From NCBI GenBank assembly GCA_963664705.1, contig OY761556.1, positions 5,664,001 through 5,728,000 of the forward strand: a DNA stretch of 64,000 nucleotides, read 5' to 3'. The notes under the pieces were generated by a model. It saw only the letters and a list, made by a program, of their open reading frames with translations, had not been told where the DNA came from and did no database searches. How positions within the stretch are numbered: the first letter of the stretch is position 1; the number at the start of each line of letters is the position of its first letter. Below are positions 7,562-35,240 of the stretch, piece by piece. The stretch is from Acidobacteriota bacterium. GTDB lineage: Bacteria > Acidobacteriota > UBA6911. Position numbers and translations under genes: made by a program.

Positions 7562-7738
7562 TCACCGGTGCCTATATCGAGCCGCCATCTTGCATATCGA
7601 TAGCGCCAGAAGGGTAAGAGAAATGGTTACGAAACATAAAACAGCATCCTTTGGACCGGCAATCCATTCGCAAAAGAGGTAAAGGCATAGCGCGAGAAAC
7701 TGCAGTTGAACGACTCGAATGACTACTTTGAGTAACAT
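7562..7738 (-). CDS. Small (58 aa) two-TM membrane protein, copy 1
   Basis: GGAGG RBS; paralogue at 21051-21227 keeps protein similarity and stop position where the DNA has diverged. Confidence 0.6.
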   Translation of the reverse strand: MLLKVVIRVVQLQFLALCLYLFCEWIAGPKDAVLCFVTISLTLLALSICKMAARYRHR

Positions 7739-7888
7739 GCGCTTCGTACCTCCATGGTTCGGGCTGCTCAATCTGCTACAAATAGTTTTTTGTAGCAGAT
7801 GTGAAAAGCGATCGCATCCAAGTCAGATGCGGCTTGTAGCGGTGTAGCGGATCTTTCCAGGGGTGCGGAAGGTCCCCCCTATGGCACC

Positions 7889-9103
7889 CTAAGATGCTAC
7901 AGCCTGCTTTCCCGAAATTATTGCGGTTAAGCGTTTGGCCCAAGCCTCCAAGGCCTCTTTCTTCTCCGCATCGTAACTGTGCCGGTCATAGACGGCGGTA
8001 ATATCCCTCTCGACATGATTCAGGATTTTTTTGACTGTAAGGCGTGGAATTCCCATTCCCGTCATCAGACTGGCGGCGGTGCGCCGGAAGTCATGACCAA
8101 CAAATTTGATCTTTGTGGCTCTTTGGATCCGCTCCAGTGCTTTCTGTGGATTGCTTATGTGCGTGTCGCCTTTAGGACTAGGAAAAACAAACCGCGAGTA
8201 CTCGTCCTTTCCTGCAATTGATCTCATTTCTTTAATAATGGATAGCGCTGGCTCACTGAGGGGAACCCGATGAGATAAGCCGTTCTTCGTTTTTGCTCCG
8301 GGGATTGTCCACCACCCGGAGTCAGTGTCAATTTCATCCCATTCTATGCCCATGACCTCAGCTCCTCGCTGAGCGGTCAGGAGTCTCAATTTCATGGTCC
8401 CGGCAGTAATAGCCTTTATCTTTAGATGTGATTCGTTTGTATCTTTCCTGTCGGCTTCTATGGCATCCCAAATGATCTTGATTTCATCTTCTGACAAAAC
8501 TCTGTCCCGCTGGTGCTCTTTTCCGGGTGCAGGTATCAAGTAGACTGGATTACTTTCGACAATGTCGGTGGTGATGGCCCAGTTGAAGATTTTTCGCAGA
8601 AGAGCCCGGATACGATTGGCCATTATTGGCGCAGTTAAGCTTTTACGTTCCAACAAGGCACGAACGTCTTTCCGGGTGATATCCTTGGCATACTGCCTGC
8701 CGAATTCCGGGATGAGGTCCTTTTTAATGACCCGTTCATCCTCCTGCCAGCTTTTCTTTTGGGTTTTGGCATGGCGCTCAATATATTCCAGGGCAACCTG
8801 TCTAAAGGTTAGTGCATGCCGTTCTTCCTGTTTCTCGGTAGCTGGATCCTGTCCGAGTTCTGCATTTCTGAGGGCTTTTGTAGCTTCGTTTCGTGCCTTG
8901 GCTAGACTCAGTAATGGGTAAGTGCCCAGTTTCATACGACGCAGGCGATCGCCGTGGCGATACATAACTCCAAAGCTCTTTTTCCCGTCTTGTGAGACAC
9001 GCAGGAAGAAGCCTGAAAGTGCTTTGTCGAAGTAGTCGACCTGCTTCCCAGGAACACCTTCCAGGAACTTAATTTTGGCGGCTGTGAATTTGATGGAGGG
9101 CAT
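7889..9103 (-). CDS. Tyrosine recombinase/integrase, P4/IntA-like with arm-binding domain, copy 1
   Basis: LTAQRGAEV (R), TKNG (K), HDFRRT, LNH, VYDRHSY (Y); N-terminal arm-binding domain; adjacent to a tRNA fragment. Confidence 0.95.
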   Translation of the reverse strand: MPSIKFTAAKIKFLEGVPGKQVDYFDKALSGFFLRVSQDGKKSFGVMYRHGDRLRRMKLGTYPLLSLAKARNEATKALRNAELGQDPATEKQEERHALTFRQVALEYIERHAKTQKKSWQEDERVIKKDLIPEFGRQYAKDITRKDVRALLERKSLTAPIMANRIRALLRKIFNWAITTDIVESNPVYLIPAPGKEHQRDRVLSEDEIKIIWDAIEADRKDTNESHLKIKAITAGTMKLRLLTAQRGAEVMGIEWDEIDTDSGWWTIPGAKTKNGLSHRVPLSEPALSIIKEMRSIAGKDEYSRFVFPSPKGDTHISNPQKALERIQRATKIKFVGHDFRRTAASLMTGMGIPRLTVKKILNHVERDITAVYDRHSYDAEKKEALEAWAKRLTAIISGKQAVAS

Positions 9104-9126
9104 GGATTATCTCCCTTGATTTTCAA

Positions 9127-9191
9127 AAAGGTAACACAAAGGTAACAAAATATCCATGACTGTAGTGAAACGTAGTGAACCGTAGTGAAAC
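9127..9191 (+). promoter_or_regulatory. Putative integrase arm-type sites (AAAGGTAAC x2) and 3x10-bp tandem repeat GTAGTGAA(A/C)C
   Basis: Direct repeats between integrase start and att core; duplicated at 22616-22680; AAAGGTAAC x2 recurs at 9382-9401. Confidence 0.6.
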
Positions 9192-9299
9192 AACAAAATG
9201 TGATTATAATCAGTATCTATGCGGTGATAGTGCGGGAATAGGTTGTTTCACTGTTGTTCAGGACGTTTCTGTAAGTGTTGACAGGAGAGAAACCGAATT

Positions 9300-9345
9300 A
9301 CTGGCAGTCAGGAGGTCACGAGTTCGATCCTCGTCAGCTCCACCA
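9300..9345 (+). tRNA. 3' half of tRNA-Ala(GGC), attachment-site core (not a functional gene)
   Basis: Anticodon loop CTGGCAG, TCAGG stem strand, T-arm ACGAG-TTCGATC-CTCGT, AGCTCCACCA end; no 5' half upstream. Confidence 0.88.
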
Positions 9346-9778
9346 ATAGAATCAACAACTTACATCCTTTCCGCAAATTCCAAAGGTAACAAAAAGGTAA
9401 CAGCTGCAACAATAATTCACCTAAGGAGGTCACAGCTTTCTCTTGGATAGCCTCTGCAAAGTCAGGCAATCGTGCAACTATCACCGGCCTCCTTTGTTTC
9501 CTGCCTCCTCAGGAATTCAGACTGAAAATTGCGTCATACCGAATGCAAAGGAATGACGCTAGTAGCTTCGGTTGCTCTATCCTCACATCGCAAGGCGCAC
9601 AGAATTTCTAGTCCAGGGCTTTAGGCTCGTCGAGGTGCTTGTAGCCTTCTTTTTCGGCATATGGTTCGGCGGAAGAGGCTTTATGTGCTCCGGGAGCTTT
9701 CTGCAGGATCCTGGGCTCCGTAGGATTTGTTGATAATGTATCGCATCTCGTCACAAAGGTGCTCCAGCGGAAGCCCGA

Positions 9779-21050: not shown

Positions 21051-21227
21051 TCACCGATGCCGGTATCGATTCACCCTTGCTAAAATCGTCCAAATCAGCA
21101 GGACTAAGGAAATAGTTACAAACCACAAAACGGCCTCCTTTGGACCGGCAATCCATTCGCAAAAGAGGTAAAGGCATAGCGCGAGAAACTGCAGTTGAAC
21201 GACTCGAATGACTACTTTGAGTAACAT
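21051..21227 (-). CDS. Small two-TM membrane protein, copy 2
   Basis: Identical N-half and diverged C-half relative to 7562-7738. Confidence 0.6.
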   Translation of the reverse strand: MLLKVVIRVVQLQFLALCLYLFCEWIAGPKEAVLWFVTISLVLLIWTILARVNRYRHR

Positions 21228-21377
21228 GCGCTTCGTACCTCCATGGTTCGGGCTGCTCAATCTGCTACAAATAGTTTTTTGTAGCAGATGTGAAAAGCGA
21301 TCGCATCCAAGTCAGATGCGGCTTGTAGCGGTGTAGCGGATCTTTCCAGGGGTGCGGAAGGTCCCCCCTATGGCACC

Positions 21378-22592
21378 CTAAGATGCTACAGCCTGCTTTC
21401 CCGAAATTATTGCGGTTAAGCGTTTGGCCCAAGCCTCCAAGGCCTCTTTCTTCTCCGCATCGTAACTGTGCCGGTCATAGACGGCGGTAATATCCCTCTC
21501 GACATGATTCAGGATTTTTTTGACTGTAAGGCGTGGAATTCCCATTCCCGTCATCAGACTGGCGGCGGTGCGCCGGAAGTCATGACCAACAAATTTGATC
21601 TTTGTGGCTCTTTGGATCCGCTCCAGTGCTTTCTGTGGATTGCTTATGTGCGTGTCGCCTTTAGGACTAGGAAAAACAAACCGCGAGTACTCGTCCTTTC
21701 CTGCAATTGATCTCATTTCTTTAATAATGGATAGCGCTGGCTCACTGAGGGGAACCCGATGAGATAAGCCGTTCTTCGTTTTTGCTCCGGGGATTGTCCA
21801 CCACCCGGAGTCAGTGTCAATTTCATCCCATTCTATGCCCATGACCTCAGCTCCTCGCTGAGCGGTCAGGAGTCTCAATTTCATGGTCCCGGCAGTAATA
21901 GCCTTTATCTTTAGATGTGATTCGTTTGTATCTTTCCTGTCGGCTTCTATGGCATCCCAAATGATCTTGATTTCATCTTCTGACAAAACTCTGTCCCGCT
22001 GGTGCTCTTTTCCGGGTGCAGGTATCAAGTAGACTGGATTACTTTCGACAATGTCGGTGGTGATGGCCCAGTTGAAGATTTTTCGCAGAAGAGCCCGGAT
22101 ACGATTGGCCATTATTGGCGCAGTTAAGCTTTTACGTTCCAACAAGGCACGAACGTCTTTCCGGGTGATATCCTTGGCATACTGCCTGCCGAATTCCGGG
22201 ATGAGGTCCTTTTTAATGACCCGTTCATCCTCCTGCCAGCTTTTCTTTTGGGTTTTGGCATGGCGCTCAATATATTCCAGGGCAACCTGTCTAAAGGTTA
22301 GTGCATGCCGTTCTTCCTGTTTCTCGGTAGCTGGATCCTGTCCGAGTTCTGCATTTCTGAGGGCTTTTGTAGCTTCGTTTCGTGCCTTGGCTAGACTCAG
22401 TAATGGGTAAGTGCCCAGTTTCATACGACGCAGGCGATCGCCGTGGCGATACATAACTCCAAAGCTCTTTTTCCCGTCTTGTGAGACACGCAGGAAGAAG
22501 CCTGAAAGTGCTTTGTCGAAGTAGTCGACCTGCTTCCCAGGAACACCTTCCAGGAACTTAATTTTGGCGGCTGTGAATTTGATGGAGGGCAT
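21378..22592 (-). CDS. Tyrosine recombinase/integrase, copy 2 (identical protein)
   Basis: 404 aa identical to 7889-9103. Confidence 0.95.
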   Translation of the reverse strand: MPSIKFTAAKIKFLEGVPGKQVDYFDKALSGFFLRVSQDGKKSFGVMYRHGDRLRRMKLGTYPLLSLAKARNEATKALRNAELGQDPATEKQEERHALTFRQVALEYIERHAKTQKKSWQEDERVIKKDLIPEFGRQYAKDITRKDVRALLERKSLTAPIMANRIRALLRKIFNWAITTDIVESNPVYLIPAPGKEHQRDRVLSEDEIKIIWDAIEADRKDTNESHLKIKAITAGTMKLRLLTAQRGAEVMGIEWDEIDTDSGWWTIPGAKTKNGLSHRVPLSEPALSIIKEMRSIAGKDEYSRFVFPSPKGDTHISNPQKALERIQRATKIKFVGHDFRRTAASLMTGMGIPRLTVKKILNHVERDITAVYDRHSYDAEKKEALEAWAKRLTAIISGKQAVAS

Positions 22593-22788
22593 GGATTATC
22601 TCCCTTGATTTTCAAAAAGGTAACACAAAGGTAACAAAATATCCATGACTGTAGTGAAACGTAGTGAACCGTAGTGAAACAACAAAATGTGATTATAATC
22701 AGTATCTATGCGGTGATAGTGCGGGAATAGGTTGTTTCACTGTTGTTCAGGACGTTTCTGTAAGTGTTGACAGGAGAGAAACCGAATT

Positions 22789-22834
22789 ACTGGCAGTCAG
22801 GAGGTCACGAGTTCGATCCTCGTCAGCTCCACCA
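22789..22834 (+). tRNA. 3' half of tRNA-Ala(GGC), second att core
   Basis: Same sequence as 9300-9345. Confidence 0.88.
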
Positions 22835-22977
22835 ATAACCTCTTAAAATACAATCATTTACAATCGGAGAAAAAGAATCAGATAATGCATCTTTCGTTGG
22901 GTGCGCCTGGGGTGCGGATTACTTTTAACGCCGATGTGAATAGATAAGACCTGATTAGTAAAATGGGACATACTGCA

Positions 22978-23025
22978 AACCCAACCAAGAGGGCTCCATT
23001 TAAGGCAGAGCCTCTTGGTTGGGTT
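22978..23025. terminator. Long stem-loop downstream of the minus-strand gene 23063-23269
   Basis: AACCCAACCAAGAGG...CCTCTTGGTTGGGTT, a 15-bp perfect inverted repeat; only a weak U tract. Confidence 0.5.
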
Positions 23026-23062
23026 GGTGAGCCTGAGGTGCCCACTTATTTCTAACCTCCTA

Positions 23063-23269
23063 TTACTCCTCTTCTTTCCACTGGCCGTTTGCAATTGCGT
23101 CTCCAACAGATTGGCCACTGTTCACCTGCAGCTTTAGGACTTCGCCTGTATCCGTATTCTCTATAAGCTCTGTTGTGCCGTATAGTAGCGAGAACGGGAA
23201 AGATAGTGCATTTGCCAACGATTGGCTTGCGTCGGGATCTTCGCCGAGGTGCTTATATTTTTCTGCCAT
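23063..23269 (-). CDS. Small acidic hypothetical protein (68 aa)
   Basis: GGAG RBS, ATG start, downstream hairpin. Confidence 0.65.
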   Translation of the reverse strand: MAEKYKHLGEDPDASQSLANALSFPFSLLYGTTELIENTDTGEVLKLQVNSGQSVGDAIANGQWKEEE

Positions 23270-23460
23270 AGTTTATACTCCAATAAAACCTAAGAGAGAT
23301 CGGAGCTTGTTATACTATTCTCCTCTGCTCTTCTCTCTGGATGGATTGATTACCAGGAACAAACAACCGATTCTCAGAATCGCCTTGTGTTTCCCCGGCC
23401 GCTTTCAAACCAATTTGAATCGATAATGTGCCTGTCGATCCGATTGGCTAGTGGTTAAAA

Positions 23461-23490
23461 CCGAAGCTCCTCAAAAGTGAGGAGCTTCGG
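23461..23490 (-). terminator. Rho-independent terminator
   Basis: CCGAAGCTCCTC-6 nt-GAGGAGCTTCGG followed by TTTT on the minus strand. Confidence 0.75.
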
Positions 23491-23505
23491 CGATCACTTC
23501 TGTGG

Positions 23506-23595
23506 TTAATTGTCTACTTCAGGACTATCAGCGTTGCTGTCCTCACTGTAATCATCAGAAGAAACGGACTCGTCGTCCGCGGAAAAATGGATCAT
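23506..23595 (-). CDS. 29-aa acidic peptide MIHFSADDESVSSDDYSEDSNADSPEVDN (absent from ORF track)
   Basis: GGAGG 8 nt upstream of ATG; terminator 15 nt after the stop; alternative in-frame ATG at 23610. Confidence 0.55.
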   Translation of the reverse strand: MIHFSADDESVSSDDYSEDSNADSPEVDN

Positions 23596-23779
23596 GGTGT
23601 CGTCCTCCATTTAACGAGTGGTGGTAACGCTTCTATGTTGCTTTAATCGGACCCTTCCGTTATCTTGCCCCGAAATGACATCCGACGTGAAAAGGTATAG
23701 CTTGCTTCCGCCCGCGTTCTCAAGGCATGGAAAGGTCATAAAAAGGACAACTTGCACATCGTTTACACGAGGTTAAAAA

Positions 23780-25336
23780 ATGGCAAGAAAAAGACATAGT
23801 GCGAGGTCTCCTTCAAATGGCAGAAAAACGATGAGGACTTGTAAAAAAGAGGTGGTTTCACATCGGGAATGGGGGGACCATTTTAACAAAATTCGCAAAG
23901 AACTTGCGTGGACGATAGAACAAACGGCTTTACATGTGGACCTAAGCACTGGCTGGGTTAAAAGAGCCATCAGCGGACAAAGCTTAATTGGATCCTTGCG
24001 TACGAGCGCTGAAGAAATCCTGAGAGATGAATGGAAGAGGAAATTTCCAGACAGACCATTTCTCGAATTTCCATATTGGATGCCCTGGTCGGAAACGGAG
24101 ATCAGTAATGATTTCGAGAATACATCAAAATTCGATCAGGCTATTTTGCAACAAGAAGAGGGTCTCGTTGATATCTCACCATATTCAACACGGACGGATG
24201 CTGTTTCTGTTAATTGTGAGAACAAGGTTCATCCTCTCGTCGAGGCGCTTAATATTCCCTTGACTAATGATTTCAGAACCGACCCGCTTCTGCTAAGGTC
24301 ACTTGATTTAGAGAAGACAATCGTAATTGGACACGTGATCGAGATTGCAAGTTATCATAAGTACAAAGGAATTACTGGGGCGGAGATCTTAGTCAGTATT
24401 GAGGGTAAAGCCATCCAATACCTTTCGCCTACTGTTCGTGATTTGGTTAGTGAAAGCCGCGCTAATTTGGTCAGTATTGGGAAAAAGGCGGCGAAGGAGT
24501 CCCGCGAAAAACAAGCAGTATTTGAGAGGGATCAATGCGAAACAAAGCTGCATTTAAAACCACCACATGGATTAGGAGGATTCATTCTAGATTCGGGGAA
24601 TGCCCACATTCACCTGTGCCGAAATGATTGGTTCACATGGCTTGCAATGAAGCAATTCACGAATGATATAAAGCGAGATGTGGCTAAAAATGGGCTGGAC
24701 TCTTTCCCTAATCGCCTGGATGTAGTATTGGGCATCTTGAGTGCATCTCAAGATAAAATTCTTATGGGGCTTCGCAGCCGCGATTCCGAATGTCTGGAAT
24801 CTGAGGTAGGTGTATGGGCATTGCCGGGTGAGCAAATGATCTTAGAAGAAAAGAATGGCATGCTCGTTGATGCTGACCCTGCTGGGATTCCAATGCCTGA
24901 AAAAACTGTTAGAAGGGCATTGCATGAACCCGATGAGACGGGATTTCCGGGCAAGTGGGCAAACGACCCCAACGTCACAGTTAGGTTTGTCGCCGCAGCA
25001 ACAGAATGGAATTATTTAATGACCAACCTTTTCGCGGTGGTATCGCTGGCCGAGTACATGTCTGAAGAGCGCTGCAATAATTTCCTGCCGAAAAAGGGCG
25101 AGCACGTAATGTGGGATTGGTTTCCGCTTAATGTGGAATCAATCGTGGATCTGATATGCAGAGGAACGTACGAAAAATTTGGTGTGGTTAATTCGAAAGC
25201 TCCATTGGCAGATTTCGCCAGATATGGACTACTTGTTGCAGCCTTTAACAAATTTGGGTATGAGGCCGTCTCTGAGTACATACTCCGGAGAGGTGAGAAT
25301 AAACAATTTGGGCTTAAGCCTTCGTCGTCTCTTTAA
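23780..25336 (+). CDS. XRE-type HTH fused to a divergent NUDIX-like C-terminal domain
   Basis: KIRKELAWTIEQTALHVDLSTGWVKRAISG (HTH); KILMGLRS..GVWALPGE..TVRRALHEPDETG (degenerate Nudix box). Confidence 0.6.
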   Translation: MARKRHSARSPSNGRKTMRTCKKEVVSHREWGDHFNKIRKELAWTIEQTALHVDLSTGWVKRAISGQSLIGSLRTSAEEILRDEWKRKFPDRPFLEFPYWMPWSETEISNDFENTSKFDQAILQQEEGLVDISPYSTRTDAVSVNCENKVHPLVEALNIPLTNDFRTDPLLLRSLDLEKTIVIGHVIEIASYHKYKGITGAEILVSIEGKAIQYLSPTVRDLVSESRANLVSIGKKAAKESREKQAVFERDQCETKLHLKPPHGLGGFILDSGNAHIHLCRNDWFTWLAMKQFTNDIKRDVAKNGLDSFPNRLDVVLGILSASQDKILMGLRSRDSECLESEVGVWALPGEQMILEEKNGMLVDADPAGIPMPEKTVRRALHEPDETGFPGKWANDPNVTVRFVAAATEWNYLMTNLFAVVSLAEYMSEERCNNFLPKKGEHVMWDWFPLNVESIVDLICRGTYEKFGVVNSKAPLADFARYGLLVAAFNKFGYEAVSEYILRRGENKQFGLKPSSSL

Positions 25337-25479
25337 TTCGCTGCGCTCCTGCTTTCCGGTCAGCCCCAGCAACCAAATGCCCCATTAACCATGCAAATTG
25401 CAACAAAAGGCACGACAGGATTTAAGTTGATTGTCATCGAGTGGCTATTTTTTTTTCTTAGCTGGATGACAGGTTTTCG

Positions 25480-26223
25480 TCAGCTGAGATCCGGGGCGTC
25501 TTTAGTGTTCTTTCCCGAAATAATTTCGGAATACTTTGACAAATGAGCTTCTGCCCCTTGAACACTATCAAGGTGCTCTGCAATCTCAGAATCATCCAAA
25601 AGCCTGGCAGCCAATTTGTTGCCGGAGGAATTAGCCAAAACAGCTATCTGCTGGGGTCCCTTAATTCCTCCTGGATTTACATCGATTGCATGCTCTAATG
25701 CCCAAGATACCGCGAAAACACCCTCGTTCAGCCGAGGAATAGTGTTTTTCCAAAAAACCCTTCTCATTAGCCCTAAGAATGGATCAGTGATAGGTTGTCC
25801 ACTGCCCATTGATACATACCACATATTCGTATCCTTAAATTCGGGCTGAAAATCAGTAATTGATAACTCACACAAATAGGGCTTGTCTCTATAGGGAAAT
25901 GCTACCAATGCGCCATAAGCACCCTGATTGGCTCGGGTGAATGAGAAATCCGAAATGCCGCTGGCGCATAACTGCTTTCCAATATCTATGTACGATTTTT
26001 CTTTAGAAAAGATGTGTCGATCCCACAAATCCTGAACAACTGTCCTAAAACGTTGGCCGAGTCCCACTTGTCCCGTTCCAGCGACTATTATGGAATTTTC
26101 AATTATTGATATTTTTTTTACGGGCTGCTCAATTGTAGAAACGGTACCGGCGCCAAATGTTGCAGAACTATCTGAACCAATGACAACTCCATCCTGGCAC
26201 ATCAAACCAAGTAGGACGGTCAT
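25480..26223 (-). CDS. Proteasome beta-subunit/HslV-like Ntn hydrolase
   Basis: M-T1VLLG..DGVVIGSD17S, KKI (Lys33 equivalent), AGTG, SMGSG; catalytic Thr exposed by Met removal. Confidence 0.8.
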   Translation of the reverse strand: MTVLLGLMCQDGVVIGSDSSATFGAGTVSTIEQPVKKISIIENSIIVAGTGQVGLGQRFRTVVQDLWDRHIFSKEKSYIDIGKQLCASGISDFSFTRANQGAYGALVAFPYRDKPYLCELSITDFQPEFKDTNMWYVSMGSGQPITDPFLGLMRRVFWKNTIPRLNEGVFAVSWALEHAIDVNPGGIKGPQQIAVLANSSGNKLAARLLDDSEIAEHLDSVQGAEAHLSKYSEIISGKNTKDAPDLS

Positions 26224-26228
26224 ATACA

Positions 26229-26669
26229 CTAGCCCTGGAAAACGCTGTTGGCTTTCATTTCTGGGTAGGCTTTGTAAATTGCCGAAACCAGGTCTGCGAA
26301 AGAAAGGCTACGAACTATGTTTGATAATCTTGTAATAGTCTGAACCACCTCTGGGTCCAGAGAAGAAAGCACACTTTCTCCGACTACCTGTCCAGCGGAA
26401 GTAGTGCGGTATTTTCTCAATCGCATACTAGGTGATTTTATTATTTCAACCAACCCGGAATCTGCTAGTACATCCAGAATGTCATAAACATCCCGGTCAA
26501 ATGGCCCATAATCATATGGTTCGAAGTTGAAATGCGGGCCGTCTAGTTCCTTCGATAACTTACGATCGAGTAGAAAGAGGAGTTTTTGCATCTGCACCGG
26601 CGAATGCAATGCTCCTTTTGAAACGGCCATTGCTGCCAAAACCAGATCGCGGTTACCCATAACTCCCAA
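26229..26669 (-). CDS. Panacea/SocA (DUF4065)-like or YwgA-like winged-helix protein
   Basis: VQMQKLLFLL..FNFEPYDYGPFDRDVY..GLV, IYKAYP. Confidence 0.7.
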   Translation of the reverse strand: MGVMGNRDLVLAAMAVSKGALHSPVQMQKLLFLLDRKLSKELDGPHFNFEPYDYGPFDRDVYDILDVLADSGLVEIIKSPSMRLRKYRTTSAGQVVGESVLSSLDPEVVQTITRLSNIVRSLSFADLVSAIYKAYPEMKANSVFQG

Positions 26670-27250
26670 GATACCATATTTTTGTTATGGTACGACTAAC
26701 TTATCGGCATACTCATCATATTCCATGGACTTTGGAGTTACTGATGCCACTGAGGATTTACAGCATGCCTTTTAGTATTACTGTGTCATAAATATATATC
26801 AAACCCGCATAAACAGCGGGTTTGATGCGTTTTCACGCTCCAGAGCGACCATGCTGAAACCCGCACCAGGCAAGGGTTAGTATTAGACCCCCAATACAAA
26901 ATGCCCTTAAACGTCGAATGGTGATTTTGATGCTGAATGCCCAAGCTGTTCTTTAACGTAAGTCAGTGGTTCATGCAAATGTTTAGCGTAGGTCGCGGGA
27001 AAAGGATTCGCGGTAGCTCGGATGTTTCCGACACTTGGGGACTCTTGAGAATTCTGGGTTTTGCTTTATAAAATCAGAATTTATATAGACCCCGATTCCG
27101 ATGCCGGGCAGGGCTTTCATTATTTTCAAGGTATACCCCCCAGTGGTGACGGGCACCTATTGAGATTGCATTTCAGATTTGCTGAAGGGAAGCTGGAGGC
27201 AACTGGCTCCCTCCAATTTAGTTTTTGGGGAGCCACGTCGTCGGATGTGA

Positions 27251-28552
27251 TCAAAGTCTTCCTGGTGTGTTGCTAAATACAATTGGTGCGCTTGTCACCA
27301 ACAATTGCGGAATGCCTGTTCCGGTCAGTTTAGAAACGGCAGTACCTTCGAAACCATGTGATCGTGCGCTTGTGAGCTTCTGAATTTGCATCGTGGCAAT
27401 GGTCGGCTGATCTACCGCGGTCTGCACGATATTGAGGTGGGGCAGACGGTTCACTGCTTGCCGGTTTGCGCCAGGCACCAAATGGCCGTAAATATCCACG
27501 GTGATTTTGATGCTGGAATGCCCAAGCTGCTCTTTAACATAGGTCAGGGATTCCCCATTCTGAAGAAGCAATGAGGCGAATGTGTGCCTTAGATCGTGAA
27601 ATCTGATGCTGCGCAGGCCGGCTTTCTCCAGACATTTCTGAAAATGCCGCTTCTTTAAATTTTTCATGTCCCGGAAGCCACCATTTTGGTTGGGAAAGAT
27701 CCAGTCTGTTTCTGGTAATTCGTTTTTGCCTTGGGCTAGAAACAATTCCTTTCGCTTACGTCGCAAGTCCAAAAGCGCTGATAGCAGCGCATCTGAAACA
27801 TCAACCTTCCTGATCTTACCTGATTTTGTGAGGTTGATTTTTCCGCGGACAATTCCTCTCCGAATAATCAGGAATTTGCCATTTTTATCGAAGTCGCCCC
27901 ATTGAAGTCCGGCCAGTTCTCCAGAGCGCAAACCCGTGTGAATGGCGCAGAGGAAAAGAGCAAAATGTTTTGGTGAATGCTTATTGACAGCCTCAAGGAA
28001 TTTTATAACTTCATCATTTGTAAGTGGCTGGATCTCTCTGTGTCGTATTGGTGCCTGCCTGTAAAATTCACCCAAGCGGGTTGCCGGGTTGTCTGCAATC
28101 AGTCGCGCCCGCAGCGCTTTATTCAGCATTTTTCGAAGTGTTGCCAGTGTGAGCCTGATTGTATCCTTAGCAAGTCCCTTGCTTACAAGAGAGGAGACAA
28201 ATTCCTCCACACGCTCCCGGGTTATTTCATCAAGGCGCAGCGCTCCTAATTCCTCCCTGAGGTCAACATTGTAGCGTCCCTCGTAACAGTTCCGGGTTGA
28301 TTCGCGAACGGAACCATCCAGCGTTTTCTTGAACCGCTCAAAATATGCATCCAGAGTCGGGGCTGGGGGAGAATCCTTTTTCTTTTCATCTTCTATTGTC
28401 TGGCCTAGTTTGAGCCGAGCTTCGATGTGTTCCTTTACCTTCAGCGCTGCCTTTTCCGAGCCAACTCGTTTGGATTTGCGCTTACCGTGGTGGTTTATAA
28501 ATACCCACCAAGTACCGGAACCTTTAACCTTTTCCCTGATTTGAACTCCCAT
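27251..28552 (-). CDS. Phage-type tyrosine integrase (second family)
   Basis: HTGLRSGEL, TKSG, FHDLRHTFAS, QLGHSSIKITVDIYGH. Confidence 0.95.
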   Translation of the reverse strand: MGVQIREKVKGSGTWWVFINHHGKRKSKRVGSEKAALKVKEHIEARLKLGQTIEDEKKKDSPPAPTLDAYFERFKKTLDGSVRESTRNCYEGRYNVDLREELGALRLDEITRERVEEFVSSLVSKGLAKDTIRLTLATLRKMLNKALRARLIADNPATRLGEFYRQAPIRHREIQPLTNDEVIKFLEAVNKHSPKHFALFLCAIHTGLRSGELAGLQWGDFDKNGKFLIIRRGIVRGKINLTKSGKIRKVDVSDALLSALLDLRRKRKELFLAQGKNELPETDWIFPNQNGGFRDMKNLKKRHFQKCLEKAGLRSIRFHDLRHTFASLLLQNGESLTYVKEQLGHSSIKITVDIYGHLVPGANRQAVNRLPHLNIVQTAVDQPTIATMQIQKLTSARSHGFEGTAVSKLTGTGIPQLLVTSAPIVFSNTPGRL

Positions 28553-28710
28553 CCGTCACCGCCCTTCCATGCCGGATAGGCATAACAGATGAGTGAATTG
28601 CAGATGCAATACGGGTAGAATGGACTCAGCCATCTCTTCCTCCTTAGTAGGAAGACTGGTTAGGGGCCGATGGATGCTCGCTACATCCTCCGGTCCCGCT
28701 TTCCAGCGGA

Positions 28711-28896
28711 TTATTTGGAATGCTTCTTGATTGCCATTGTGATCCCCTCGCGCACGAAATAGGACACCGGCAAACCCTCCCTTTCTGAAATCTTTTCCAG
28801 CTGTTTCAATTCCGATTCGGTTAACCGGACGCCGATTTGGTGCTTCTTTCTGTCGACGTCCGGAATCAATCGAAGTCCTTTGCGAGGAGCCATCAA
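28711..28896 (-). CDS. Ribbon-helix-helix DNA-binding protein
   Basis: QIGVRLTESELKQLEKISEREGLPVSYFVREGI. Confidence 0.75.
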   Translation of the reverse strand: MMAPRKGLRLIPDVDRKKHQIGVRLTESELKQLEKISEREGLPVSYFVREGITMAIKKHSK

Positions 28897-29120
28897 TTAT
28901 GTTTACCATTATGATTACCACTTTGTCAATCAGATAATGAAAGATAATTTCCTACGCGTAAACTGTCTGGCTTTCATTTTGAATTTGGATTTCCGCACCC
29001 CCCGCGCACCCGGCGGGTGGTTGCAAGTTTGTTTGACTAGGCTGTTGTTGGGCAACTTTTGCTAAATCAGGTGGTTAGCATTTCCGGCTGTGATAGTGAC
29101 CCCCTGACTACGTATTATTT

Positions 29121-29399
29121 TCAATCCAAAAGCCCTTCCATTACTTCGTCTACCATGAGATCGAGATCGGGCCAGTCGTTTTTCTCTATGTGTTTCTCCA
29201 TCCATTTCTCTAGGTCTGATTTCTTAAACAGCAGCTTAGATCCGACACGATGATGCTTGATCTCGGGCAGGAGCTTTCTGATAGTTCTTTCGGATAAATT
29301 GAGGTATTCAATCGCCTCGGAAAGGGACAGATATCGATCCTGGTTCAAATACGCAATGACTTCTTTGACCGATACCAAACCCTGCAGAACTTGGTCCAT
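29121..29399 (-). CDS. Excisionase-like HTH protein
   Basis: YLSLSEAIEYLNLSERTIRK..RVGSKLLFKKSDLEKW. Confidence 0.85.
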   Translation of the reverse strand: MDQVLQGLVSVKEVIAYLNQDRYLSLSEAIEYLNLSERTIRKLLPEIKHHRVGSKLLFKKSDLEKWMEKHIEKNDWPDLDLMVDEVMEGLLD

Positions 29400-29456
29400 G
29401 CCCGACAGACTCCTAAACGAGAGACCCGATCTTTTGACTTTTTGATTTGATGATTG

Positions 29457-29981
29457 TTAGGACAGCCGTTCGTGTTTCTTTATTTGTTCAATTCTTTGCG
29501 CTAATTCCAAAAGGTTCTTCAGCCTTTCATCCGAAAGGACATCCCGGCCTGGATCCTGCACTTTGAGTTCTCGTTGGAGACTGCCGGAGATTTCTGTCGA
29601 TACTCTTTCACGGTACTTCTCGGGTTTGACGGCTTTGAGAAGAAAGATAAGAAGAGTTGTCGACCCCGGGTCGCGCTTGTCCTGCGCTCGCTCAAAGGCG
29701 AGTGACTCAAGATTATCGCCGGCTATTTCCTGCGCATACTCGAAGGCTTTTCTGTATTCGGGATCCTTCAGCCAATGGTAGTGGCTCGAACGGTCGACCC
29801 CGGCAATCTGGGCAGCCCTGGTCAACATGCCGGTTGTTGAGAAGGCTACCAGGAAAGCCCTTTTTTTAGGATGTGGAATATAGCTGAAGAGCTGGTTTTC
29901 CTTTGGTTGAACCCATTCTTCTCCTAGTGGCTCGACCGATTGGGCTGCTTCATATTTTACGAGGCTTATGGCATTAGTCAT
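29457..29981 (-). CDS. Terminase small subunit-like HTH protein
   Basis: KKRAFLVAF..TRAAQIAGVDRSSHYHW..DPEY..LLIFLLKAVKPEKYRE; strong GGAGG RBS before ATG 29981. Confidence 0.7.
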   Translation of the reverse strand: MTNAISLVKYEAAQSVEPLGEEWVQPKENQLFSYIPHPKKRAFLVAFSTTGMLTRAAQIAGVDRSSHYHWLKDPEYRKAFEYAQEIAGDNLESLAFERAQDKRDPGSTTLLIFLLKAVKPEKYRERVSTEISGSLQRELKVQDPGRDVLSDERLKNLLELAQRIEQIKKHERLS

Positions 29982-30146
29982 TTGATACTCCCTCCTCCTG
30001 ATTGGTGGTTTCGGTGGCAAGCGTATGCTCTTTGTTTTGTTGAAGTTAGTCTGGTTGGATTTGACTACTGGACAAGTATTGTGACTGTATTCATGAAGGC
30101 TTGTCTGCAGACCTGAACTTCAGTACGCTATCTTTTTACTTTCGGA

Positions 30147-30422
30147 TGCGAACCTTGCTATCCCCCGCGAACGTTATCCCTCGCTGGTTCGCAAGCCGTA
30201 AATCTTTATTTCCTAATTGCATATAGATTGTTTGCGAACGTGCGAGCCAAAATTCGATTTCCACCAATAATTACTAATAAATGAAAGCCCAGAGAATACT
30301 TCTCTCACCAGTAGAAAGAAGTTCGCAGGTTCGCACAAATAGTATTAATAGTGAAAATAGAATGATTTAGCGCATGCGAACCTCTGGTGATGAAGGTTCG
30401 CATAGGTTCGCAGGTTCGAGGC
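30147..30422. repeat. Cluster of GTTCGC/GCGAAC repeats in both orientations, putative replication origin
   Basis: About nine copies with AT-rich spacers immediately 3' of the helicase-like gene. Confidence 0.65.
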
Positions 30423-30427
30423 ATAGG

Positions 30428-32002
30428 TCATTGCTTTTCGGGTGATTCAATGCCCCGATCGGCTTTCATCAGCTTCCATTGTGGGTACCCTTTCCGAACG
30501 GTAGCTTCTGTGATTTGTAAGCCACCAATGATACAGTCACGTTTCTTTTGCAAAAGAGTCCCGAGACGCGTGGCAGCTGAATGATCAGAACCATCGCCTA
30601 AACCGAAACCGTCCGCACATACAACAAGCTCCCCGGCCTTAACTGGGCAATCCCTGTATTTATCCCACCAACTCAGTAGGAATTTTGTCCAGAGAGCAGT
30701 TTCGGAGTCGGTTTGATCATAAAAGTTTTCACGATTTTCCAAAAATCCCGGGATTTCGGCGCACTCAAGTATGCCGCCAATAATATCGCTCCAGCTTTCG
30801 AAACTGCCGAGCCGATGCCCATTAAATTTAGGACGACCTCGAGCAACCCAGTTTTGGATTAGAGTGAGTACCGCCCATACGAGTTGTGGGCGATTTTCAG
30901 AGACCCAGCCACGCAGGTCGGGGTGCTTAAAGTCTTTTTCGGATCTCTCATAAGGACGCTCCATCTTGGCATCCATTCGAATCTGAATCGTCCTTCGTGA
31001 TAGCTCTTTTGAAAACTGTAGGTTATTCCCGGTTATAACGCATGCACATCTATTTGGAACTCTTTGTACATCGGAGCTGCCTACACGGCGGTCAACATAG
31101 TATTCGGAGGTTGTAATGGCAGAAAGAGCCGCAGAATCAAGCACACGACCAACATTATCAATGATCAGCATTTCCGGACTGCTTAAAAGCATTGAGAATA
31201 ATGTTCGGCGCATTTCGCTTTCATCGGGAGGAGCTGACATATTAGAAGGCCTTTCTCCAGAGATGACATAAGCCAACGTATCACAAAGCAGGCTTGCTCC
31301 GGTTCCTGGGGTTGGCTTATCAATCCCATATAAAGGAGTTGGCCCTGATATCATTTCTCGGGCAGGCTGTTGCAGGATAAGCGCGATGGCATTTGCAAGA
31401 TCGGAACGATTTGTAAACGGAAAATCGAAAAGCAATTCCTCAATTAATAGCCGACGTGCCTCCGTCACCTCCAATGCGGATGGATTTTGAGATACGGAAG
31501 GTAATACGAACCCTGGCATTTGATAATAGTAGATGTTTGCCGCCGGATTATATCCAGGACAAGTCTGTTGGATTCCATCAGCGGCAAAGATAGGGGATCT
31601 AGTAATCCTTTTGAGCGGCGGAAACTCGATCCATGGAAGGGACATAATATCCCTAATTACTTCCAATGGAGGGAAGGCAGGAATTTCATCATCCCCTTTG
31701 AAGGTATAATACTCGGCAGCGCGTGCCGCTTCCCCTCTCATTCCGTCAATCCCTAATTTTGATATCTGGGGGGCTCCTGTCTCGTCGTACCCAATACGGA
31801 CAATGGAGCTACCTCGAGAAAAAATTCGTACAGGCGAATTAGCCAGATGGAGGGCATCTAATGTCTCTCGGACTGCAGACGCTAAATCTTTGTTGCCGGC
31901 ATAAATTCTTGGCAGACCAAAGTTATCTGGATTAAGGGAAATACATTTCATCTTTGTCTCTAGTTGTTCCGACGTGGAACAAGGATGTTCGAGAGAATTC
32001 AT
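30428..32002 (-). CDS. Primase-associated P-loop helicase-like replication protein
   Basis: KPTPGTGASLL (Walker A variant), LIIDNV (Walker B), ITGNN, ELSRR, SFESWS. Confidence 0.7.
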   Translation of the reverse strand: MNSLEHPCSTSEQLETKMKCISLNPDNFGLPRIYAGNKDLASAVRETLDALHLANSPVRIFSRGSSIVRIGYDETGAPQISKLGIDGMRGEAARAAEYYTFKGDDEIPAFPPLEVIRDIMSLPWIEFPPLKRITRSPIFAADGIQQTCPGYNPAANIYYYQMPGFVLPSVSQNPSALEVTEARRLLIEELLFDFPFTNRSDLANAIALILQQPAREMISGPTPLYGIDKPTPGTGASLLCDTLAYVISGERPSNMSAPPDESEMRRTLFSMLLSSPEMLIIDNVGRVLDSAALSAITTSEYYVDRRVGSSDVQRVPNRCACVITGNNLQFSKELSRRTIQIRMDAKMERPYERSEKDFKHPDLRGWVSENRPQLVWAVLTLIQNWVARGRPKFNGHRLGSFESWSDIIGGILECAEIPGFLENRENFYDQTDSETALWTKFLLSWWDKYRDCPVKAGELVVCADGFGLGDGSDHSAATRLGTLLQKKRDCIIGGLQITEATVRKGYPQWKLMKADRGIESPEKQ

Positions 32003-32131
32003 TCAATACTCCACAGTTTGTTTTAGTGGTTAATGGATGGATGGGAGAGCTTCTGATGTCGCCGGTGCGTTTGCCGAGCTTTACTGTAGAATAACAACCT
32101 AAACCCAATTAGCTTGGATTTGTTGTCATTT

Positions 32132-32749
32132 TTACGTCGGGTCTACCGGCCTGGGGGCAACACCTATGATGTAGTAGATGTAAACGTCACAACCATAGAC
32201 GAGAAGATCCCTCAACAACGGGTATTCAGCGCTATTATTTTCAAATCTATTCTCCTCCGCCCAGTCTATAGGTATATCCAGAATTGGATTAAGTAACGAC
32301 ACAACGGCCGGCAGAATGCGCCACAATCCGGTCTCCTTGTCGCGCTCAAGAATTTTGGGCTTATCGGGCCCGGTAGCTAAGCGATACCGCCAAATTAGCG
32401 CAAGCAGCCAATCCGGGTAAAAAATCATTTCTCCGTCCAGCCCAATGAAGGTTGAATATTCCGTTTTCGGTGCAGGAAATGTTCGGAGATACTCTTTTAG
32501 GGCTGAGCGGTATTGGTCTTCTGATCGAAAATTATCTCTTTGGGGAATCCCGACGATATCAAGATTTTGGTGCAGAGCTTTTAATCCTGCCATTATCCGG
32601 CGTGCCTGGCAAATCCCTTCAATGTCATTTCTGCGCGCCCTAAAAAATGATTTTGTATCAATCGAATTTTCCGTTCTTCTGCTTTTAGTATGATTGTCTT
32701 TACGATCACTGCTACGGCTGTAAATATCGTTTGTCTGTTTATTTTTCAT
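32132..32749 (-). CDS. Hypothetical protein
   Basis: 205-aa ORF with GAGG RBS, co-oriented with the module. Confidence 0.55.
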   Translation of the reverse strand: MKNKQTNDIYSRSSDRKDNHTKSRRTENSIDTKSFFRARRNDIEGICQARRIMAGLKALHQNLDIVGIPQRDNFRSEDQYRSALKEYLRTFPAPKTEYSTFIGLDGEMIFYPDWLLALIWRYRLATGPDKPKILERDKETGLWRILPAVVSLLNPILDIPIDWAEENRFENNSAEYPLLRDLLVYGCDVYIYYIIGVAPRPVDPT

Positions 32750-32919
32750 ACGGAAAACCTCAGAATTGTGTTTGTGAAATTATCTCTCTGGACCATCCAG
32801 AGCAATGTGTCATGCTTTTGAAGCCTGGAAGTCGGAACAAGAGAAGCAGCCTCTTTGCCGATGATAGGGAATTGGCTATGTGGACTCGTATAGACCCGGG
32901 TATTCAGAATTCCTCTAGG

Positions 32920-33171
32920 TTAGCTTCTTTTTTGTCCCGGAGCATAGGTTGCCCTTGGGTCTCGACTGTTGCCATTCCACCAAAGCACGTTTCCACGATT
33001 CTTTCGAAATTCAAATTCCGCTTGTCTCTGAATTTGATTCTCTTCAGAAAAAAGTAGCTTTCCCTTTTCAATCCGGGCAATGCCACGGCGAACAAAATCA
33101 AGTGCTCGCTTGTTGGTTGTATATCTTTTCCCACCCTCAATCGGGTTCATAATTTCTATTATTCTGGACAT
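32920..33171 (-). CDS. Small hypothetical protein
   Basis: AGAGG RBS before MSRIIEIMNP. Confidence 0.55.
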   Translation of the reverse strand: MSRIIEIMNPIEGGKRYTTNKRALDFVRRGIARIEKGKLLFSEENQIQRQAEFEFRKNRGNVLWWNGNSRDPRATYAPGQKRS

Positions 33172-33378
33172 ACCTCTAACCTCCTGCTGAGCAAACTCGG
33201 CTTTGATCCGGTGCCGGGTGACCGTGCTAGGTTCAAACAAGCGCAGTATCCTCAGGGACAAAATTCGTGTACAGTTTCTTTATTTCTAAATTAGTGAAGA
33301 AAATTGAAAGTGCTTTTTATTGTGTGATTTACGAGTAGGAATAAGTTAAAAAGGGGAACTGGACATAATTGGACAGAA

Positions 33379-33888
33379 TTATTTGGTTCTCCTACGAGTA
33401 AGCTGTTTTCGTAGAGATTCGCGCACAGATTTCAGCTCTTCTGATTTTTCTGGATTGTCGAACAAGGCAAGCCAATCCTTACCGCCAACGCCGGGAATTT
33501 CTGCTTTATTTTCTCTTTCCAGTTGAGCAAAGACATTCCGCAATTTAGCTGAATCGCGAAGTTCGATGGGCTCCTTTATTCCCGCTGAGTGAAGGGTTTG
33601 AACAATCAAAGTGACATTCCCCTCTTTGGGTCGTCCGGCTTTGAGCATTTTCCTTGTCTTTTGTCGTGGTTTTCTGGTTTTTTCGTCGACCGTGCGCATA
33701 GGCAGAATCAGTGCTTTGAGGTTCCAAGCCGTTTCTACTATGGAATCCAGCTTATCTTTAAGTCTCGCACGTAGGTCTTGAGCACCGGGAACTTTTTTTA
33801 ACTCGTGTAGCCTTTTCCTAATATCTTCCTCTTCATCAGCGAGCTTGTTCAGTTCGTCCATGTAATTTGATGACAATGCCGTCTCCAT
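33379..33888 (-). CDS. Hypothetical basic/coiled-coil protein
   Basis: 169-aa ORF containing KAGRPK. Confidence 0.6.
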   Translation of the reverse strand: METALSSNYMDELNKLADEEEDIRKRLHELKKVPGAQDLRARLKDKLDSIVETAWNLKALILPMRTVDEKTRKPRQKTRKMLKAGRPKEGNVTLIVQTLHSAGIKEPIELRDSAKLRNVFAQLERENKAEIPGVGGKDWLALFDNPEKSEELKSVRESLRKQLTRRRTK

Positions 33889-34058
33889 AATTTAGTTTCT
33901 ACGAATATAACGGCGATCATAAACCTTCGTTGTATCTGTCTCAACGAGATTCAAGTTTACATGGAATTGAGTGTTCTCCCAGAGGTCTGAAAATATCGGC
34001 AATGCTCCTAGTCAAATTCTGCTAAATACGTGCTTTTATAATTGTAAAAAGTTTGAGT

Positions 34059-34087
34059 TTGACTGCTGGTCAAGGAAATTGGATAAT
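34059..34087 (+). promoter_or_regulatory. Sigma70-type promoter
   Basis: TTGACT-17 nt-GATAAT; predicted start site coincides with the riboswitch P1 5' strand. Confidence 0.65.
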
Positions 34088-34091
34088 AAAA

Positions 34092-34198
34092 GTGCATCAG
34101 GAGTGGTCCCGAGGGACCCGGCAACCGGCAAGGAGACGCACGGTGCCTTGAACCCCATACGGGTTCGATGCGCGGATATAAGGCCGAAACGAGTCTCC
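34092..34198 (+). ncRNA. SAM-I/IV-type riboswitch aptamer
   Basis: P1 GTGCATC(34092)/GATGCGC(34167); ATCAGGAG junction; short P2 GGTCC-CGAG-GGACC; P3 GGCAACC...GGTGCC; P4 GAACCC/GGGTTC; pseudoknot GGAGAC(34132)/GTCTCC(34193). Confidence 0.82.
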
Positions 34199-34205
34199 GA
34201 AATAC

Positions 34206-34239
34206 GCCGCCGCAATCTGATGGGCGGCATTTTTGTTTT
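34206..34239 (+). terminator. Intrinsic terminator, riboswitch expression platform
   Basis: GCCGCC...GGCGGC followed by ATTTTTGTTTT directly after the aptamer. Confidence 0.75.
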
Positions 34240-34300
34240 ACCTCACCGGCGGCTGTTCCTCCTGATGCCGAATTGTTCATTTTCATGCGGGAGAATAGAT

Positions 34301-34705
34301 ATGTGTGCCGATGGTCAACCCAAACGGAAACGCAAGACCAGGGAAAATCAGGAACCCAGCGAAACCAGCATTGAATATATCCAGCAGGTCCTGCTGCGCC
34401 GGAAAGAGCTGATGGACATATACGGATTTGGGAGTTTAAAGAGGGCCGAAAGGAAACTATTGGAGCAATTACTCCGTGCTCCAAAAATGGATGAGTTAGA
34501 AAAATATCTCCAGGTTGAGGCGGAAATAAAGAAGTTATCTGATCAAATTGCTTTTTGTGACGATCAGTGTGCAGTTTTACCAAAGAGCATTGATTTTTTG
34601 GTAGTGAACATATCGATGCAGGATGGGCATCACCCGTCGTCACGGTGTCCTTGCGGCCCCGATATCCTACTGTATGTGAACGGAGAAGTTGTGGTTCACA
34701 AATAG
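34301..34705 (+). CDS. Hypothetical protein with C-terminal His/Cys motif (HHPSSRCPCGP..VVH)
   Basis: GGGAG RBS before ATG 34301; the longer GTG start at 33971 would run through the riboswitch. Confidence 0.55.
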   Translation: MCADGQPKRKRKTRENQEPSETSIEYIQQVLLRRKELMDIYGFGSLKRAERKLLEQLLRAPKMDELEKYLQVEAEIKKLSDQIAFCDDQCAVLPKSIDFLVVNISMQDGHHPSSRCPCGPDILLYVNGEVVVHK

Positions 34706-34734
34706 CACTGTATGTCCTCATTGGAGTGTTGGTG

Positions 34735-34980
34735 ATGGTCGTAATCGTTAAGAACGGTAAGATCGAAACAATCGATGTCGAGCTTGAAAATTACGATAGC
34801 ATCGATTTGTTCTGGTTGTTGTCAGACAAAGCCAGAAGTTGGATAAAGGGCAATGTGCATGTCGAGGACTGGCAAAGGTTCGGGAATGCGCTGGCAGTGG
34901 AGCACAGAATGGCCGGTGATCTTACTCAGGGGATGCTGAATAGCGGACTGATTGTGAAAACCTCAGAACCGGGGACGTGA
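34735..34980 (+). CDS. Small phage-like hypothetical protein
   Basis: GGAG RBS; ENYDSIDL..ARSWI..WQRFGNALAVEHR. Confidence 0.6.
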   Translation: MVVIVKNGKIETIDVELENYDSIDLFWLLSDKARSWIKGNVHVEDWQRFGNALAVEHRMAGDLTQGMLNSGLIVKTSEPGT

Positions 34981-35024
34981 TCGTGATGTAACACCCCATA
35001 AAGTCGCCACGCACTGCTCCCTGC

Positions 35025-35240
35025 TCACACACGCGACATCAGTTGTGAAATGGTCATATCGAATGCAATAGCGAGGACTTCCAGATTGCGGAGGCAGATT
35101 TCTTTTTTCCCGTTTTCCAGATCAGAGATGAAGCTGCGGTCAATGCCAACGTGCTCGGCCATGTAGACCTGGGTCCAGCCACGGCTTTTCCGTAGTTGGC
35201 GTAGCCGTTTTCCAAATCTGATACAAATATCGTTCGACAC
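35025..35240 (-). CDS. XRE-family (controller-protein-like) HTH regulator
   Basis: FGKRLRQLRKSRGWTQ..GIDRSFISDLENGKK; imperfect palindrome TAGTCGAT-AA-ATCGGCTA at 35266-35283 upstream. Confidence 0.88.
   Translation of the reverse strand: MSNDICIRFGKRLRQLRKSRGWTQVYMAEHVGIDRSFISDLENGKKEICLRNLEVLAIAFDMTISQLMSRV

Follow-up and report, generated by a model that had tools for sequence, protein, structure and literature searches.

A two-gene unit on a tRNA-associated island

The DNA analysed here is a 64,000-nt stretch (hereafter the window) of contig OY761556.1 from an Acidobacteriota bacterium of the UBA6911 lineage (GenBank assembly GCA_963664705.1, positions 5,664,001 to 5,728,000 of the forward strand), to which coordinates refer unless a locus is named. 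An original prediction made from the sequence had pointed to a two-gene unit with a 5-nt gap, in which a Panacea/SocA-like gene precedes a stand-alone proteasome-beta-like protease, and both minus-strand open reading frames are found there, separated by the gap described (Table 1). The upstream gene, hereafter the partner, more likely starts at the ATG at 26660, which agrees with Met1 of the family, than at the TTG at 26669. Its last codons contain an AGGG stretch resembling a ribosome-binding site for the protease gene, which together with the short gap makes translational coupling of the two genes likely on sequence grounds. A Shine-Dalgarno-like 4-mer precedes the protease start in 64 of 128 pairs, a set in which both genes cover at least 85% of their profiles and which is therefore biased towards intact copies.

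Table 1. Features of the protease-partner locus and of the element that carries it.
Feature	Position in window	Strand	Remark
Protease gene (P0001)	25480..26223	-	Proteasome-beta-like Ntn hydrolase, 247 aa
Partner gene (P0002)	26229..26660	-	Winged-helix, DarG-C-terminal-domain/Panacea-like, 143 aa
Intergenic gap, 5 nt	26224..26228	-	Upstream stop 26229-26231, protease ATG 26221-26223
Protease C-terminal amphipathic helix, residues 211-235	25519..25593	-	Anbu H5-like
Terminator-like hairpin	26826-26798	-	Consensus match only; number not above shuffles
Weak sigma70-like site, after hairpin	26802-26774	-	Consensus match only; number not above shuffles
Decayed second copy of integrase 3' end	26896..26972	-	82% identical to 27477-27553
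Tyrosine integrase of the pair-carrying phage-satellite-like element	27251..28552	-	
Satellite-like core, excisionase to Cro/CI-like regulator	29121..35240	-	
Excisionase of satellite-like core	29121-29399	-	
Terminase small subunit of satellite-like core	29457-30020	-	
Primase-like protein of satellite-like core	30428-32002	-	
Cro/CI-like regulator of satellite-like core	35025-35240	-	
att copy, 3' half of tRNA-Ala GGC; left end of island	22789..22838	+	

The pair sits between the tRNA-Ala att copy and the integrase of the satellite-like element. The island as a whole measures 51.6 kb, its right att copy lying outside the window at offset 74438, and its cargo also includes a type I restriction-modification system, GmrSD, Mrr, an AbiL/PARIS-like ATPase and a DUF4011 helicase. 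An assembly artefact was rejected: runs X1 and X3, both from one sample, each provided one read-derived contig that covers 22809-30000 with 0 differences, the 51,659-nt contig of run X3 beginning at 22809.

Several other features of the region were recorded. An integrase-plus-att unit of 1,734 bp is duplicated at 7615-9348 and 21105-22837 (99.6% identity), and at least five copies of the tRNA-Ala(GGC) 3' end (offsets 9300, 22789, 74438, 79870 and 89488) delimit a tandem island array of ~170 kb. A dense defence cluster at 35888-61060 holds a DEAD-box helicase, endonuclease V, Mrr, GmrSD, an AbiL/PARIS-like ATPase pair, a type I restriction-modification system with an embedded PDC-S02 nuclease and YgjP, and a DUF4011 helicase (PDC-S37/Hhe). 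Convergent on the protease gene lies a 518-aa orphan (23780-25336, plus strand) that matches nothing in Pfam, NCBIfam, PADLOC or PHROG; visual inspection suggests a putative HTH-like stretch at its N-terminus and a putative Nudix-like one at its C-terminus. It was rejected as a member of the unit, having 0 relatives in 239 fetched loci.

The protease has a proteasome fold and no propeptide

The catalytic residues and the missing propeptide were correctly foreseen: the protease begins with Met-Thr, its T2, D18, K37 and G51 are the equivalents of Thr1, Asp17, Lys33 and Gly47, and G140-S141-G142 is present. In the 128 intact pairs, T2 is retained in 127 (Ser in the remaining one), D18 in 127, K37 in 127, G51 in 128 and G140 in 127, S141 in just 103. 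The protein passes the Pfam Proteasome cut-off (PF00227; 31.4 bits, cut-off 22.4), and the alpha-beta-beta-alpha fold, the N-terminal Thr and the Asp17, Lys33 and Gly47 equivalents that mark this class are all found in it. Its predicted structure (pLDDT 92.7) bears out the proposed likeness to proteasome beta, aligning with proteasome subunits at Z 21.5 (rmsd 3.4, 205 residues) and with Anbu at Z 20.5 (rmsd 3.6, 216 residues, C-terminal helix included; with Anbu 5loy, model residues 2-240 are spanned), followed by HslV (Z 18.2), BPH (Z 17.9) and Connectase (Z 11.7). The Ntn fold is thus common to the protease, HslUV, the 20S proteasome, BPH and Connectase.

In the family, N183-P-G-G occupies the place of the Asp166-Ser169 segment of the proteasome, and the C-terminal helix has heptad-spaced hydrophobic positions (214/221/224/228/231/235). 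By sequence offset, the S1 pocket would be formed by Gly45 (100/128), Gly52 (81/128) and Gln53 (123/128), which suggests a roomy, uncharged pocket when judged against those described in PMC5666114.

As had also been predicted, no alpha subunit, HslU or Pup gene is found among the 38 window proteins scanned. The host genome (98% complete) has two PF00227 matches: the protease and an hslV that adjoins hslU at C1:1.058 Mb. A search of this genome for a Pup ligase was negative. The archaeal beta model is weakly matched by all 70 aligned family members and the alpha model by 26 of them. A canonical 20S beta subunit was rejected, as the protein scores far below the cut-off (29.2 bits vs 224 for NCBIfam proteasome beta), has no cognate alpha subunit and shares its genome with hslV as the only other PF00227 gene. 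HslV identity was likewise rejected, given no linked HslU, a separate host hslUV operon, the presence of helix 211-235 and weak matches to HslV models, again far under NCBIfam cut-offs, in just 3-4 of the 70 members.

Anbu (PDB 5LOY, 5NYG; PMC5666114) is similar in its fold including the C-terminal helix, its Met-Thr start and the lack of an AAA+ partner, but its operon has transglutaminase, ATP-grasp and Alpha-E genes, none of which recurs beside the pair, and identity is 10-12%; membership of Anbu was therefore rejected. Judged by published description, the family seems to belong with the group II/WPH-type homologues that Fuchs, Alva and Lupas reported in 2021 (PMC8665760). In that paper, the group II homologues (WPH, PHI, ACC, PMI-1 to 6 and PHD) likewise have Thr1/Asp17/Lys33/Gly47 and no propeptide, similarity to archaeal beta as well as alpha, a long C-terminal helix, and a distribution over bacteria plus Euryarchaeota. 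The authors report finding no genomic context or co-occurrence for them, whereas the present family has an obligate partner.

At 90% clustering the family has 947 relatives; at 50% it has 1,563 representatives, and 547 of these reach E <=1e-30. None of the best 150 of the 1,563 exceeds 314 aa. A scan of 7,994 candidates between 477 and 2000 aa gave no fused or longer form, although as evidence this is weak, and a 370-aa cluster member considered as a fusion proved to carry a C-terminal extension instead.

The partner resembles the C-terminal domain of DarG

The partner is predicted to fold as a winged helix (pLDDT 95.6), and its top structural match is DarG in the DarTG crystal (PDB 7YK3; Foldseek E 3.9e-4; Z 11.3, rmsd 4.0, 137 residues aligned), the next best match reaching Z 8.7. 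The C-terminal domain of DarG is the closest solved fold, the QKL and YGP motifs align, and an acidic surface is found in both; the partner differs in having neither a macrodomain nor a DarT, and stands alone, at 143 aa, beside a protease. The DarG C-terminal domain occludes the DarT active site, according to PMC11481870, which cites Deep et al. 2023.

Nine residues of the partner are invariant (Q25, K26, F29, F46, G52, P53, F121, P133 and S139). G52-P53 is present in 128/128 and F54 in 125/128, so that YGPF stands where Panacea proteins have GPV, their signature motif (PMC8832971). F141 is kept in 126/128 and is followed by a tail of 1-5 residues modelled with low confidence. The helix at residues 55-68 is net acidic in 69/70 partners and the wing is mildly basic. 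No shared operator was detected in 122 upstream regions, where the best dyad (17/122) resembles a -35 box.

Profile searches place the partner near several antitoxin-like families. The 70 partners match PADLOC models of DarG (65), the N-terminal part of PDC-M19A (70) and LmuC (4); in NCBIfam they match DarG (43) and SocA (25), all weakly, and in Pfam, at E <=0.01, Panacea (PF13274; 20) and PadR (22). No literature on PDC-M19 was found. The partner in the window itself scores 21.2 bits against PF13274, under the cut-off of 25.7, and 17.5 bits against NCBIfam SocA (NF047745), cut-off 190. Some relatives bear a precomputed PF13274 label, and a profile comparison between the partner family and one canonical Panacea protein gave a probability of 1%, which is not significant. 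The Panacea/SocA-like label of the original prediction therefore stands for the wider winged-helix group and falls for canonical membership: distant relatives adjoin other genes, and with YGPF and sub-cut-off scores the partner is a member of a promiscuous antitoxin-like group, not a canonical Panacea protein.

Among the distant relatives, sampled across the phylum, several lie beside other gene types (L220, L222, L216, L217, L214, L219 and L212). Labelled by eye, the neighbours read as HD hydrolases and membrane proteins, with some DUF488-like fusions; some relatives overlap the starts of HD-hydrolase-like genes or precede small membrane proteins. These may be further undescribed toxin-antitoxin-like pairs.

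The pair is a strict, mobile two-gene unit

Among genome loci found through the protease (the best 80 of 149), the partner is adjacent in 78, the two remaining loci being a pair split by a contig end (L022) and a protease with a broken 5' end (L057). The partner lies directly upstream in 72 of the 78, and the gap ranges from -4 to +17 nt in the 71 loci for which it was tallied. Because three genomes contribute eight of the 80 loci, the counts cannot be treated as wholly independent. When the search begins with the partner instead, the best 80 of 275 metagenome loci include 75 with an adjacent protease (72 in tandem, 3 convergent) and five without one. In viral sequences, 12 of 19 partner loci have the protease, six do not (three of them identical) and one ends at a contig edge; in each of the 7 viral loci where the protease occurs, the partner accompanies it. 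The neighbourhood check proposed with the original prediction thus shows the two genes together well beyond the window. No third gene recurs beside the pair, the commonest neighbour being an IS1595 transposase (9 loci), and no AAA+ gene recurs near it.

The genes are convergent in six of the 80 genome loci, all from Alphaproteobacteria (L046, L054, L055, L064, L072 and L078), with stop codons overlapping by 4-8 nt, and in three of the 80 metagenome loci (L146, L147 and L163); coupling is therefore not essential. Since the convergent loci fall in a mostly alphaproteobacterial clade that has tandem copies too, one gene has been inverted while the two stayed together. The distances between members are correlated for the two genes (r 0.47; none of 2,000 permutations is as high), nearest neighbours agree in 24 of 70 cases, and mean identity is 45% for both genes, an equal degree of conservation. 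The distance correlation shows co-inheritance, not molecular co-evolution; inter-chain covariation gave no signal, with a top z of 7.8 vs 8.8-9.6 in three shuffled pairings, in an underpowered set of 128 pairs (effective number 116).

The suggestion that the pair is mobile accessory cargo also holds. The 70 aligned rows, arranged in a quick tree, span 18 phylum-level groups, methanogens included. The protease was found in 0 of 60 relatives, and among 401 genomes of the host phylum it has matches in seven: four have full pairs, one has nothing but fragments, and in two the match is a weak, N-terminal one to another proteasome-like protein with no such partner nearby. In one genome the pair is the sole passenger of a 2,476-bp transporter element of the IS1595 family (L049:4490-6965). 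Its terminal inverted repeats measure ~25 bp, and one copy shows an 8-bp target duplication. Four intact and three decayed copies of this element lie in that genome, with copies at L049, L050, L069, L229, L240 and L241, and some have lost the partner and the protease N-terminus. The carriers of the pair are this transposon, prophages, the tRNA-integrated phage satellite of the window, and genomic islands. The protease had no match in plasmid or GenBank phage collections, and the partner none in GenBank phages.

Some further occurrences deserve record. At the edge of detection, other proteasome-like proteins (L234:880-1674, L235:1387-2361) stand in a mobile-looking context without this partner. 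Orphan partners in phages (two paralogues at L094:4001-5220; L082-L084, L096 and L099), some of them between apparent packaging genes, are possibly antitoxin mimics. In Caulobacteraceae, the pair is followed by a 508-525-aa gene of the dCMP/dCTP-deaminase family (L065:6620-8143, L079:7078-8652). Cultured Legionella and Stenotrophomonas strains have the pair sporadically (including L059 and L060), annotated as hypothetical proteins.

Loss pattern and defence context

The two genes are lost in different ways. The partners without a protease in the metagenome (5/80) and viral (6/19) loci are intact, and intact partners also stand beside broken proteases at L068, L076, L081, L139, L152 and L229. 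The proteases without a partner (L057, L233, L237, L240 and L241) all lack the catalytic N-terminus. Set against the rule that a toxin is not kept without its antitoxin, we find five 5'-truncated partner-less copies and two counter-examples: at L048 and L075, a frameshifted partner lies beside an apparently intact protease reading frame, with no second partner copy in the assembly. These may be sequence errors, or the protease may be silenced through lost coupling. The asymmetry itself could be due partly to operon geometry, because the promoter disappears together with the first gene.

Within two open reading frames of the pair at 70 loci lie 212 frames of at least 110 aa, of which 182 were scanned and 30, mostly short or doubtful, were dropped by eye. 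By our own classification (E <=1e-12), 23 of the 182 belong to defence or toxin-antitoxin Pfam families, distributed over 18 of the 70 loci. The control, drawn from 20 arbitrary regions in 7 genomes of the host's class only, gave 0 of 81 frames (Fisher p 2e-4), or 3 of 81 once Sir2, Lhr and MazG are counted (p 0.025), and any accessory gene would show the same effect. The remaining 52 loci have no defence-family neighbour within two frames, and many copies of the pair stand alone among housekeeping genes.

The pair was not recognised as a named system in the original prediction, and it was not found as one here. The protease matches 0 PADLOC families, the partner gives partial-domain matches only (PDC-M19A, type I S and DarG) and the two together match no single anti-phage system of PADLOC 2.0. 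No description of the pair was found among the papers listed by full-text searches, which take in few subscription journals, and no known toxin with a proteasome-beta fold was found there. The terms proteasome, Ntn, HslV and Anbu are absent from the supplements of PMC8832971 and PMC10440598 and from the main text of bioRxiv 2025.01.08.631966, but large tables of defence predictions could include these genes. The pairing is real, widespread and apparently undescribed.

A candidate toxin-antitoxin-like module with a threonine-protease effector

We give a probability of about 0.5 to the reading that the pair is a type II toxin-antitoxin-like defence module, in which a threonine-protease effector is blocked by its winged-helix partner. 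Gene order, loss pattern, mobility and a partner whose closest structure is an active-site plug favour it, as do the near-fixed pairing, the acidic helix, the defence neighbours and the sporadic spread, and the pair is, as such systems are, a conserved two-gene mobile unit with no third gene. More tentatively, it would be the first toxin-antitoxin or abortive-infection system with a proteasome-family threonine protease as effector and a stand-alone DarG/Panacea-type sensor, carried through bacteria and archaea on transposons, satellites and prophages.

The steps that follow are inferred and go further than the fold, the pairing and the mobility. Methionine aminopeptidase would expose Thr1 of the protease, the C-terminal helix would dimerise it in the manner of the antiparallel coiled-coil dimer of Anbu, and the partner would occupy or distort its active site, much as the DarG C-terminal domain does with DarT. 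A phage protein acting on the conserved QK/YGPF surface of the partner, or a shut-off of host expression, would then free the protease, which would cleave a single specific protein or a small number of them, probably behind a residue that is bulky and uncharged given the roomy pocket of Gly45, Gly52 and Gln53 (sequence numbering), and this cleavage would arrest the cell or the phage. The transposon or satellite bearing the pair would be stabilised by this lock as well.

PanAT (type II) and SocAB (type VI; PMC8832971, PMC10440598) likewise combine a small helical antitoxin-like gene with a second gene in a mobile module, but 78% of Panacea pairs are toxin-first and here the antitoxin-like gene comes first. 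PanA proteins have been proposed as sensors, and PanA antitoxins neutralise independently of ClpXP or Lon (PMC8832971). RosmerTA (PMC10440598) is also a two-gene phage-defence module containing a protease; its protease is an antitoxin of the ImmA family, whereas ours is an Ntn threonine enzyme whose loss pattern suggests the opposite polarity.

Some observations weigh against this toxin-antitoxin reading. The apparently intact proteases at L048 and L075, each beside a frameshifted partner, count against a freely lethal toxin, and the 52 of 70 loci that have no defence-family neighbour count against a role in defence. Nor does the missing propeptide imply danger, since isolated proteasome subunits are inactive until assembly (PMC8665760) and Anbu is inactive on standard substrates (PMC5666114). 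The convergent copies, the part that operon geometry may play in the loss asymmetry and the lack of a known toxin of this fold among the papers searched weigh the same way. Finally, the partner is conserved at the level of an enzyme, which exceeds the needs of a simple plug.

This last point is better explained by the main rival, a self-contained adaptor and protease, which we consider unlikely. A SocA-like partner would here deliver a foreign target, either a phage protein or the toxin of another element, to its own ATP-independent protease, and neither protein would be toxic. SocA is a Panacea-domain proteolytic adaptor (PMC8832971), and 25 of 70 partners weakly match it; the many invariant residues of the partner would be expected, convergent genes and partner-broken copies would be tolerated, orphan partners could use host proteases, and no AAA+ gene recurs nearby. 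The adaptor reading thus accounts for the high partner conservation, the convergent copies and the two counter-examples better than the toxin-antitoxin reading does. It is weakened by a SocA score far under the cut-off, by an inhibitor domain as the closest partner structure and by the lack of a linked third, target-like gene, and a folded target would require an unfoldase or a very specific cut.

A further possibility, an improbable one in our estimation, is that the partner is a dedicated substrate, cleaved or transpeptidated in the manner of Connectase, for example at its C-terminal S-V-F-x-x tail, and thereby switched on or attached to other proteins. Connectase, itself homologous to the proteasome, has a single specific substrate (PMC7980362), F141 is nearly always kept and followed by the short low-confidence tail, and the S1 pocket seems roomy. 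Yet a similar C-terminal motif occurs in distant relatives that have no protease neighbour, DarG aligns over the motif, and the tail codons double as the ribosome-binding site of the protease gene; the protease also retains helices H1/H2, absent in Connectase, to which its match is weaker than to the other folds compared.

More improbable still is a partner that acts as an activator or assembly cap in place of an alpha subunit or HslU, making the pair a small stress protease with no role in conflict. The lack of a linked alpha subunit or ATPase and the many copies between housekeeping genes agree with a cap, but a sporadic mobile distribution, frequent decay and defence-rich neighbourhoods at a quarter of loci fit conflict cargo better, and orphan partners would have no use. 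Least probable of all is a PadR/MarR-like repressor cut by its own protease in an ImmR/ImmA-type switch controlling mobile-element genes, as the winged-helix fold, weak PadR matches and mildly basic wing are offset by the acidity of the helix at the recognition position, the lack of a shared operator and the lack of a conserved regulated gene nearby.

Implications for proteasome homologues and Panacea-type domains

Twenty-two proteasome homologues were described in 2021 without a genomic context that would point to a function (PMC8665760), and the obligate partner of the present family makes the question of their function testable. If true, the toxin-antitoxin reading would give a function to one orphan group II proteasome homologue and would make the proteasome fold a weapon in the conflict between phage and host. 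The Panacea papers do not decide between a plug, a sensor and a proteolytic adaptor as the role of the Panacea-type domain, which in this family is encoded next to a protease of its own. A toxin with the proteasome fold would be new, and so would a cassette of adaptor and ATP-independent protease; a specific, switchable threonine protease or ligase could serve as a tool, as Connectase does.
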